64,000 nucleotides of DNA from an uncultured Clostridium sp. (GCA_948436975.1 CAOJJB010000001.1:14005-78004), one strand, 5' to 3'; positions 14,483 to 15,335 are shown, counted from the first letter of the stretch. Made by a program: numbers and translations. Notes: generated by a model not told the origin, from the sequence alone.

Positions 14483-14485
14483 ATA

Positions 14486-14516
14486 CCGGAAGACGCCTGT
14501 TGGCGTCTTCCGTATT
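14486..14516. terminator. GC-rich hairpin terminator (bidirectional) at the left edge of the 40%-GC segment
   Basis: taccggaagacgcc-tgtt-ggcgtcttccgta, an 11-bp perfect GC-rich stem plus flanking pairs. T-rich on both sides. Confidence 0.6.
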
Positions 14517-14578
14517 AGGTGAACTTTATTGATTTCTCGTGGTTATCTCCTAACTCTTAGACTCTGTCATTGGATCGG

Positions 14579-15247
14579 CTATACTGCTTCTTCCACTGGT
14601 TTGTTATATTTTCTCTTATATTTATCAACATCCATCCCCAGTCTTTCCGCTTTCTTTCGTAAAGCTTCTGCTTTGCCTACCTGCGAACCATATGTTCCCT
14701 TAGTTACGAAAGTACCATCTGGCTTCGCATGCACTAACTTTTTCATATGATTCTGACGATCTTTCTTAGATCTACTTGCCAGTGATTTATCGGCTTCAAT
14801 AGCCTTTTCCAGCAATCTCTTACTTACTCTCTGAGTCTGCTTCATTCTGACTTTTCTTTTTGCTTTTCGTGTTACCTGTCTTTCCCATTCGCGGTTAATT
14901 AAATCACACACTTCTTTAGTTGGTTCAAATTCCCCGATTTTGATATCCATTTGACACATAAATTCTTCGTAAGCATCATTTAATTTATCCTGCTTCTCAT
15001 CTTCCTCAGCCAGTTCCTTATTGAATTCATTTTGTAATTCCTCCATATGAATTCTTTCAGCCACTTTTTCAGCTTCAGATTTTTCCCACAACATATCCAG
15101 TTCTTTATCTGCCTCTTTAGCTTTCCATTCATACCAGTTTCTTTCCTCAATAAGAATAGCAAAAAGATCTTCACTTCTAGAAACCACCGTTATTGTTTCC
15201 TGATCCTGATAATATTCCCGAATCGATTCTTCTCTTACCTGTCTCAT
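14579..15247 (-). CDS. hypothetical Glu/Lys-rich coiled-coil protein encoded in a compositionally foreign (about 40% GC) segment
   Basis: Strong RBS (aaaggtgg) before the ATG at 15247. The 222-aa product is highly charged (KELDMLWEKSEAEKVAERIHMEELQNEFNKELAEEDEKQDKL...RKAKRKVRMKQTQRVSKR). Codon usage and GC differ sharply from neighbours. Confidence 0.5.
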   Translation of the reverse strand: MRQVREESIREYYQDQETITVVSRSEDLFAILIEERNWYEWKAKEADKELDMLWEKSEAEKVAERIHMEELQNEFNKELAEEDEKQDKLNDAYEEFMCQMDIKIGEFEPTKEVCDLINREWERQVTRKAKRKVRMKQTQRVSKRLLEKAIEADKSLASRSKKDRQNHMKKLVHAKPDGTFVTKGTYGSQVGKAEALRKKAERLGMDVDKYKRKYNKPVEEAV

Positions 15248-15335
15248 AATAAGACCACCTTTCTTTTTTTATACGGCACATTCGCCATCTCTTTTATTAT
15301 ACATTGATTTACATAAAATGTCAATTATTAAACCT

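Follow-up and report, generated by a model that had tools for sequence, protein, structure and literature searches.

A GC-rich orphan gene between tex and an MBL-fold hydrolase gene in AT-rich uncultured Clostridia, probably an old import in compositional decay

The amelioration model of Lawrence and Ochman deals with horizontally transferred genes, whose composition and codon usage are atypical of the genome in which they reside. Taxonomically restricted orphan genes form a second familiar class, defined by the lack of homologues outside a narrow clade. Two further systems serve here as leads: the gating of expression by rare codons in Streptomyces, in which TTA codons depend on the bldA tRNA, and the Arg-rich helices of the lambda N arginine-rich motif (ARM) and of the bZIP basic region, which bind nucleic acids. 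We analyzed a single gene that invites comparison with all four, in a stretch of 64,000 nucleotides from an uncultured Clostridium sp. (GCA_948436975.1 CAOJJB010000001.1:14005-78004; the whole stretch is called the window, and positions are counted from its first letter). The gene occupies a segment at 14484-15310, between the gene for an MBL-fold hydrolase and tex, and encodes a highly charged protein of 222 amino acids. A preliminary description of this DNA, made from the sequence alone, took the segment for a recent horizontal acquisition of one cargo gene. We consider it probable that the gene goes back to a single ancient transfer out of a high-GC organism, that it has since descended vertically while its foreign codon usage eroded, and that it is functional and fast-evolving.

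The GC-rich segment and its slot across the clade

When GC content was recomputed in 827-nt sliding windows over the 64 kb, the mean was 23.7% (standard deviation 4.1%), and the segment itself, at 37.6%, had the highest value of all, the fraction at or above it being 1.6e-4. The sharp jump in base composition reported in the preliminary description is therefore real, and the same holds for the change in codon usage. GC content at the first, second, and third codon positions of the 222-codon open reading frame (ORF) is 0.51, 0.30, and 0.31, respectively, and the third-position value (GC3) of 31% compares with 0.056-0.133 in all 35 other window ORFs of at least 200 amino acids; the shift in codon usage is thus genuine, and the GC excess is not only a matter of amino acid content. 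Individual third-position frequencies in the gene are A 0.41, C 0.05, G 0.26, and T 0.28. The 99-nt noncoding 3' stretch of the segment is also GC-rich (43%), and the 5' leader and promoter are host-like (22% GC). In both overall GC and GC3 the segment is therefore atypical for its host, as a genomic island would be.

The tex locus was taken from 80 related species-level genomes, which are uncultured gut Clostridia, several of them labelled Candidatus Scatovivens, and the slot between tex and the MBL gene was compared in the 24 related species in which these two genes are adjacent. Nine of the 24 have a short gap of 33-264 nt, which in the shortest five (33-75 nt) is essentially a bare terminator, and four have 350-430 nt of low-GC DNA. 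The other 11 carry an insert of 557-1179 nt with 32-54% GC at the same site, and ten of these inserts contain, on the same strand as tex, a 165- to 227-codon ORF for an acidic-then-basic protein. In the eleventh (L019, 3789-4346; related loci are designated by L numbers), the 557-nt slot has 45.6% GC, retains the conserved promoter, and contains only a short GC-rich ORF (64-80 amino acids) with no detectable similarity to the charged-protein family; it is probably a rearranged remnant.

A tblastn search with the window protein missed all of the slot homologues in the related species. Pairwise BLASTP joins all family members into one network (window and L013, E 1e-7; window and L018, 5e-5; L039 and L045, 8e-11; L039 and L018, 1e-9; L017 and L029, 5e-13; L045 and L022, 1e-43). 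A family profile run against 5.8e9 clustered proteins recovered 14 clusters only, and all those looked up sit in the tex-MBL slot. An alignment of the whole family yielded nothing in metagenome and viral contigs, there being no stretch conserved enough, and a subgroup alignment applied to metagenomes gave three further copies, two on short contigs identical to L045 and one of the L022 type, the last at the same distance downstream of a tex-sized gene. No homologue outside the tex-MBL slot was found in the 5.8e9 clustered proteins, in 1.84e9 representatives, or in JGI metagenome contigs. As far as these sequence searches reach, the charged protein is a previously undescribed family, confined to a single clade of uncultured gut Clostridia with very AT-rich genomes (Candidatus Scatovivens-like) and, within it, to the tex-MBL slot.

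A neighbour-joining tree of Tex, MBL, and MurA groups the species exactly as similarity within the family does, the shared groups being (window, L013), (L017, L029), (L018, L019, L039), and (L020, (L021/L093, L022, L095), L045); L028 is placed among the species with an empty slot. Distances within the family are correlated with those of the flanks (Mantel Spearman rho 0.45, permutation p 0.004). The promoter, TTGAC[AT]-17-TATAAT, is conserved and AT-rich in all members, and the spacer ttttatgtaaat is common to several distant ones. Synonymous divergence (dS) of the flanking genes between species is 0.45-0.8, which is near saturation at 9% GC3. In the window's own species the gene is present in all of the 21 contigs that encode an identical MBL protein, so that it is fixed rather than strain-variable, and all contigs with the window protein share the same neighbour genes. 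Homologues in the same slot, diverging together with their flanks, indicate that the gene predates the split of these species and has been lost several times.

These results leave little of the recent event first proposed, in which a mobile element of some higher-GC Firmicute would have delivered one cargo gene. The anomaly in GC and GC3, the gene's own promoter and terminator, and its standing as a strict orphan by sequence all fit such an event, and horizontal acquisition in itself keeps the support of a foreign composition, which in relatives reaches 91% GC3. Recency, however, is contradicted by the homologous genes and promoters in the same slot of ten other species at the flank divergence just given, by the codivergence of the family with its flanks, and by the junction between the MBL gene and tex, which shows no presence/absence variation within the species. 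Absence from sister species, another feature expected of an island, is not seen either: L013 and nine further species have a slot homologue. What recurs across the clade is the same site with a very divergent homologue, a modified form of the conservation that the preliminary description had named as evidence to the contrary. Nor does anything point to a mobile element. There is only one ORF between the MBL gene and tex, and no integrase among the ORFs and called genes (window 12000-18500; 20-kb locus L003); around the segment there are short chance repeats only, in place of terminal repeats or att-like target duplications; no tRNA gene serves as a target, the nearest being 8 kb off; blastn and tblastn searches of PLSDB and INPHARED gave chance 36-nt matches only, and scans of IMG/VR gave none. 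Relatives among the accessory proteins of conjugative transposons or phages, also suggested at the outset, did not emerge from the protein searches, which returned the protein's own cluster and no phage or plasmid relative. We regard recent acquisition from a mobile element as highly improbable and already largely refuted. An integron gene cassette was likewise rejected, given the gene's own perfect promoter and the lack of an integrase around the slot (attC sites were not searched for with a model).

The same slot also harbors a gene of about 35-40 codons for a hydrophobic peptide (e.g., VAIIKLIFLISVFTISFFSFRKFLIKIFSKQIKDKTMK), found in L079 (8432-8545), in L014, L016, and L072, in L017 (at about 8333-8434), in two of the longest of the short gaps (L025 and L026), and less clearly in L027. 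Most copies have a promoter-like TTGAC..TA.AAT, and all have a ribosome-binding site of the AGGAGGT type. This gene fills the slot in species without the charged-protein gene, adjoins the charged-protein gene in L017, and is absent from the window; by appearance, it encodes either a small peptide of the membrane or something akin to a type I toxin. Other single GC-rich genes without a Pfam match are intergenic near abcF and tex, in L029 (5027-5656, minus strand, 209 amino acids) and L049 (2711-3334, plus strand, 207 amino acids). Both were rejected as family members (hhalign probability 0.2% for L049; no tblastn match from any member for either), and isolated GC-rich inserts may be a recurring feature of the clade. 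L018 contains, at 1330-1429 on the plus strand, a match to Rfam RF03531, a Clostridioides difficile small RNA within a helicase gene (67.9 bits; gathering score 65.2).

Foreign codon usage, its erosion, and its arrest

Compared with 7-11% in tex of the same genomes, GC3 of the family copies rises from 31% in the window through 39% (L017, L029), 40% (L039), 42% (L013, L020), 63% (L093, L018), 66.5% (L028), 68% (L022, L100), 71% (L103), 73.5% (L095), and 84% (L099) to 91% (L045); their leaders and promoters are host-like (19-29% GC). The codons of L045 include CGC 13 times, CGG 3 times, and AGA never; CTG 8 times, CTC 4 times, and TTA never; AAG 22 times and AAA never; and also GCC, GAG, and CAG. 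To judge from the sequence, such usage is that of a high-GC organism, including first-position synonymous choices that are hard to derive from selection at third positions. Synonymous differences between relatives mostly set G/C against A/T, and the changes that could be polarized comprise 17 from G/C to A/T versus 2 from A/T to G/C; polarizing the L045/L099 substitutions with the other subgroup as outgroup is ambiguous, the tree being unrooted. Between the window copy and L013, the decay of GC3 is close to the neutral prediction. Orthologues with still more foreign usage, together with this 17:2 bias, are what an ancient xenolog should show, and the window copy is both the most eroded and the most divergent member of the family. 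A horizontal origin would be the most economical source of the codon usage. Most likely, a single import from a high-GC organism brought in the ancestral cassette ahead of the divergence of these species; since then the cassette would have been inherited vertically, with several losses and occasional recombination between close species. The GC-richness would then be inherited foreign codon usage that is being worn away by the AT-biased mutation of the host.

Several points weigh against this history. A horizontal origin, though the most likely one, is argued from composition, and neither a donor lineage nor an outside homologue was found in the protein and metagenome collections named above. 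With flank dS so near saturation, the timing of the import is rough. Two alleles are broken, in nature or in assembly: P0005, from the window's species, is a frameshifted form of the window protein with 190 amino acids, and in L021 a single base difference from L093 creates a premature TAG. The gene may thus be dispensable. With regard to function, the window protein and 11 family members had no match at or above threshold in Pfam, NCBIfam, PHROG, PADLOC, or PDB sequences, and the roles considered below, the binding of a polyanion or acidic partner and a part in genetic conflict, are conjectural. The remaining points concern the rate of decay. Between subclades, only some 30-35% of the excess G/C third positions in flanking genes survive, so that a neutral relic of a single old import would be expected to have at most about 55-60% GC3 today, and six lineages (L018, L028, L022, L095, L099, and L045, with GC3 of 63-91%) lie above this. 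Between species of the L045 subgroup, 92-100% of the G at synonymous third positions persists, versus 49-62% in the flanks (P 1e-8 to 1e-11 relative to the neutral expectation). Simple neutral erosion fails for these six lineages; an active force is therefore at work there, and part of the GC-richness could in principle be its product, made in place.

The arrest of decay differs between bases and between lineages. Over the same divergence in the L045 subgroup, C at third positions (C3) decays to T (T3). Third positions are A 0.00, C 0.47, G 0.44, and T 0.09 in L045, and A 0.00, C 0.30, G 0.44, and T 0.26 in L095; not one of about 220 codons ends in A in L045, L099, or L095, the frequency in L103 is 0.01, and about 50% of codons in host genes are A-ending. 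In the pairs window-L013, L017-L029, and L018-L039, third-position G (G3) and C3 both decay approximately neutrally. This contrast between G3 and C3, limited to some lineages, suggests lineage-specific selection for G-ending or against A-ending codons. GC-biased gene conversion was rejected as the main cause of the GC-richness, since it makes no distinction between G and C. A mutational asymmetry tied to the transcription strand should show up in every lineage in which the conserved strong promoter acts; the observed pattern is lineage-specific instead.

In several species every G-ending codon for Lys, Glu, and Gln has come through speciation intact, in genomes with some 90% of codons ending in A or T. 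It is conceivable, though we would not count on it, that the G/C-ending usage is held by selection at synonymous sites, that the gene is thereby kept out of tune with the host tRNA pool, and that the window copy has lost this constraint. If so, the purpose could be to throttle or gate the translation of a charged protein that evolves fast, is strongly transcribed, and may be harmful; alternatively, the mRNA might escape a nuclease specific for A-rich codons. CAG has persisted in every lineage, including those in which most GAG and AAG have turned into GAA and AAA: the window gene has 9 CAG versus 2 CAA codons and 5 GAG versus 29 GAA (Fisher p 1e-4), and host tex has 16 CAA versus 1 CAG. A tRNA cluster in the window (5839-6131, minus strand) comprises tRNA-Thr(UGU), tRNA-Glu(UUC), and tRNA-Lys(UUU). 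Only U34 isoacceptors for Glu and Lys were seen in the window, an observation that bears on the reading of G-ending codons.

Selection could also be given the whole task: a native or de novo gene, never transferred, whose G/C-ending codons were both built and held by synonymous selection, which might favor slow, wobble-dependent translation or the avoidance of A-rich mRNA, and whose window copy has since lost that selection. The absence or near absence of A-ending codons in L045, L099, L095, and L103 and the high G3 retention agree with such an origin, as do the host-like composition of promoter and leader and the failure to find a donor. On the other hand, Arg and Leu are drawn from the CGN and CTN boxes and not from AGG and TTG; C3 stands at 47% in L045, and since the loss of C3 to T3 far outpaces that of G3 to A3, high C3 looks inherited rather than selected. 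The noncoding 3' stretch, moreover, is GC-rich too, and the polarized changes run 17:2 toward A/T. An origin without transfer seems to us unlikely.

A different source of GC-rich copies would be repeated replacement of the slot from an unsampled high-GC pool, by recombination through the promoter and flanks, in which case the high-GC copies would be young. Sequence comparison indicates that recombination between close species does occur: L022 is a mosaic, its N-terminal 66 residues being of the L093 type and its C-terminal half of the L095 type, and its flanks are nearly identical to those of L093 (dS 0.013 in tex versus 0.53 in the gene). The sharp contrast in GC3 between the sister species L018 (63%) and L039 (40%) also suits replacement. 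The only recombination partners seen, however, are alleles of neighbour species in the same clade; no member occurs outside the slot, family distances co-vary with those of the flanks, and age alone does not explain the contrast in retention between G3 and C3. We judge repeated replacement improbable, and retain one old import followed by vertical descent.

The charged protein and its cassette

The protein evolves far faster than its neighbours: identity within the family is 75% where the flanking proteins are 98% identical, 38% where they are 92.5% identical, and about 25% where they are 91% identical (window and L013). The ORFs of the two main haplotypes in the window's species differ by five nonsynonymous and no synonymous changes; one further difference between them lies in the 3' region, and a sixth, rarer nonsynonymous variant of the ORF also occurs. 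The resulting ratio of nonsynonymous to synonymous polymorphisms is 6:0, as against 8:9 in tex, murA, and the MBL gene together (Fisher p 0.03). Single-nucleotide polymorphisms (SNPs) number 6 in the 827 nt of the segment and 18 in the 19842 nt elsewhere, an approximately eightfold density relative to the 20 kb around it (Poisson P 1e-4). The protein changes at about the neutral rate, possibly under positive selection. The ORF is nevertheless intact in about 30 independent contigs and open in every lineage; among close relatives, the ratio of nonsynonymous to synonymous divergence (dN/dS, NG86) of the gene is 0.2-0.6 (for murA, some dN/dS values were disregarded as frame artefacts); and the probability that a 222-codon frame would survive 0.3 substitutions per site under neutral drift is about 1e-5. 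The kept frame, the bipolar charge pattern, and the Arg/Lys-rich helical core argue that the gene is functional despite its fast change.

As originally described, the window protein is rich in Glu and Lys (29% together) and highly charged (43% D/E/K/R); its net charge is -19 over residues 1-120 and +19 over residues 121-222. An AlphaFold single-chain model, which bears on the putative coiled coil of the preliminary description, consists of long helices, including residues 21-103 with a predicted local distance difference test score (pLDDT) above 90 over much of the stretch. The global confidence of the structure models is low (predicted template modelling score, pTM, 0.30-0.33; 0.30 for the single-sequence model of the window protein), and a model of a relative from a 15-sequence multiple alignment has a pLDDT of 60; helices and a disordered acidic linker are predicted. 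In a Foldseek comparison with the PDB the best match had E 1.9, and fold matches from models of such low confidence carry no meaning. The window protein retrieved only its own cluster, both in a word-indexed search of the 5.8-billion-cluster protein collection and in a full HMMER scan of the 1.84 billion representatives; the full-sensitivity search was seeded only with this, the most eroded family member.

Conservation is concentrated in a basic core at about residues 125-165 of the window protein, with the family motif RA.RRK..A.HK.K..R.A.......KR...D; R159 and D163 are invariant across the family alignment. A second motif follows at 187-202, SQvGKAeaLrKKAerl in the window and SQ..KA..l.K.A.K in its family form. 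The basic, Arg/Lys-rich helix might bind a polyanion (RNA or DNA) or an acidic partner, and the acidic half may mask, compete with, or temper such binding. The speed of protein change would suggest a role in genetic conflict or in some other species-specific interaction.

GC-rich islands in AT-rich genomes often mark RNA genes, and antisense ORFs of 205-259 amino acids exist in L018, L022, L028, and L045, so that the ORF might be spurious and the real gene either a structured noncoding RNA or the antisense frame. Rfam, however, gave no match at E<=1 in window 13500-16500 and none at the gathering score in the slots of five relatives, and while nucleotide conservation is scant, the frame, start codon, ribosome-binding site, and protein motif are kept. 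In the window, stop codons limit the antisense frames to 73 and 86 amino acids, in-frame TCA in L093 and CTA in L100 each give an antisense stop codon, and where sense third positions are devoid of A, long antisense ORFs are to be expected as a by-product. There is hardly any likelihood left that the ORF is spurious.

The segment is a complete monocistronic unit on the minus strand, with its own strong promoter, ribosome-binding site, 222-codon ORF, and terminator, and the single self-contained gene does make up the whole of the cargo, as the preliminary description had proposed. Transcription would start from an AT-rich sigma-70-type promoter at 15324->15296, TTGACA-17 nt-TATAAT, which matches the consensus perfectly (12/12), is homologous to the promoters of the relatives, and did not figure in that description. 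Perfect promoter sites number 4 in the window, versus 0.33 expected by chance; the three others (TTGACA-N16-18-TATAAT), all on the minus strand, are at 5758-5786, 21637-21664, and 24182-24210. The ribosome-binding site, AAAGGTGG, lies at 15255-15262, 7 nt upstream of the ATG, and is followed by the ORF (14579-15247), with its acidic N-terminal and basic C-terminal halves, and by the GC-rich noncoding 3' region of the transcript (14513-14578), which includes one within-species SNP at 14553. The terminator hairpin at 14487-14512 has an 11-bp stem (8 G-C pairs), a 4-nt loop, and a T-rich tail on the minus strand; its arms and loop read CGGAAGACGCC-aaca-GGCGTCTTCCG, and it begins 5 nt past the stop codon of the convergent MBL gene. 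Both this hairpin, as the start of the segment, and the ribosome-binding site had been correctly recognized. The sister species L013 has a homologous, more AT-rich hairpin, GACACC-aaca-GGTGTT.

Two genes outside the cassette form the conserved borders of the slot, by synteny and domain content: on the left the MBL-fold hydrolase gene (13694-14482, plus strand; Lactamase_B_2, E 8e-21) and on the right tex (15388-17541, minus strand; Tex_N, Tex_YqgF, HHH, and S1 domains). Just past the tex stop codon, a repeat search found an AT-rich inverted repeat at 15336-15378 on the minus strand, with arms at 15336-15350 and 15364-15378 that are 87% complementary; this repeat probably serves as tex's own terminator, and it marks the edge of the cassette on the host side. 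Elsewhere in the window, the 5' end of spoIIR (11690-11867) is represented in 2 of 13 same-species contigs (L004/L111) by an allele that diverges strongly, through numerous substitutions and indels, and SpoIIR is called there as 138 rather than 204 amino acids.

Comparison with known systems

For annotation, what had seemed a recent orphan island becomes a clade-restricted family with a fixed address and a recognizable core motif. An orphan verdict drawn from 15 billion proteins can hide positional orthologues of about 25% identity that are recoverable by synteny. The family also offers a natural time series, in which one foreign gene is seen at many stages of compositional decay (GC3 from 91% to 31%) in genomes of about 9% GC3, and the strand- and base-specific arrest of that decay in some lineages makes selection at synonymous sites directly testable against mutation bias and biased gene conversion. 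A strongly promoted, maintained protein that evolves at or above the neutral rate is, in addition, a candidate player in genetic conflict in uncultured gut Clostridia.

In kind, the gene is both an old xenolog in amelioration and a lineage-restricted orphan, and both kinds are already known. It resembles the genes of the amelioration model in a composition and codon usage atypical of the resident genome, in the bias of change from G/C to A/T, and in the different stages of decay that its lineages have reached. It differs in being a single gene fixed clade-wide in one slot, without mobility genes, rather than a strain-variable island, and in the arrest of G-ending-codon decay in several lineages, far beyond the neutral expectation. 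With taxonomically restricted orphan genes it shares the lack of homologues outside a narrow clade, positional orthologues whose similarity is nearly erased, and a short, charged product that is predicted to be partly disordered. Unlike them, it has a composition that does not come from the local AT-rich DNA, and its basic core and promoter remain conserved.

Resemblances to the other two systems are leads. As in bldA-dependent gating, one gene keeps codons that its host seldom uses (here Lys, Glu, and Gln codons ending in G, at a host GC3 of about 9%), but the arrangement would be a mirror image, with rare GC codons in an AT-rich genome, and these are spread across the whole ORF instead of a few sites; the window copy is without the pattern, and a dedicated tRNA or regulatory link is hypothetical. 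The conserved core RA.RRK..A.HK.K..R.A, as a predicted helix dense in Arg and Lys, recalls the lambda N ARM and the bZIP basic region. No profile or structure match accompanies this likeness, however, and in a low-complexity segment the resemblance may mean nothing. What appears unexpected by comparison with all of these systems is the codon usage of the relatives, which is free of A-ending codons and seems to be held by selection in genomes of the opposite composition.

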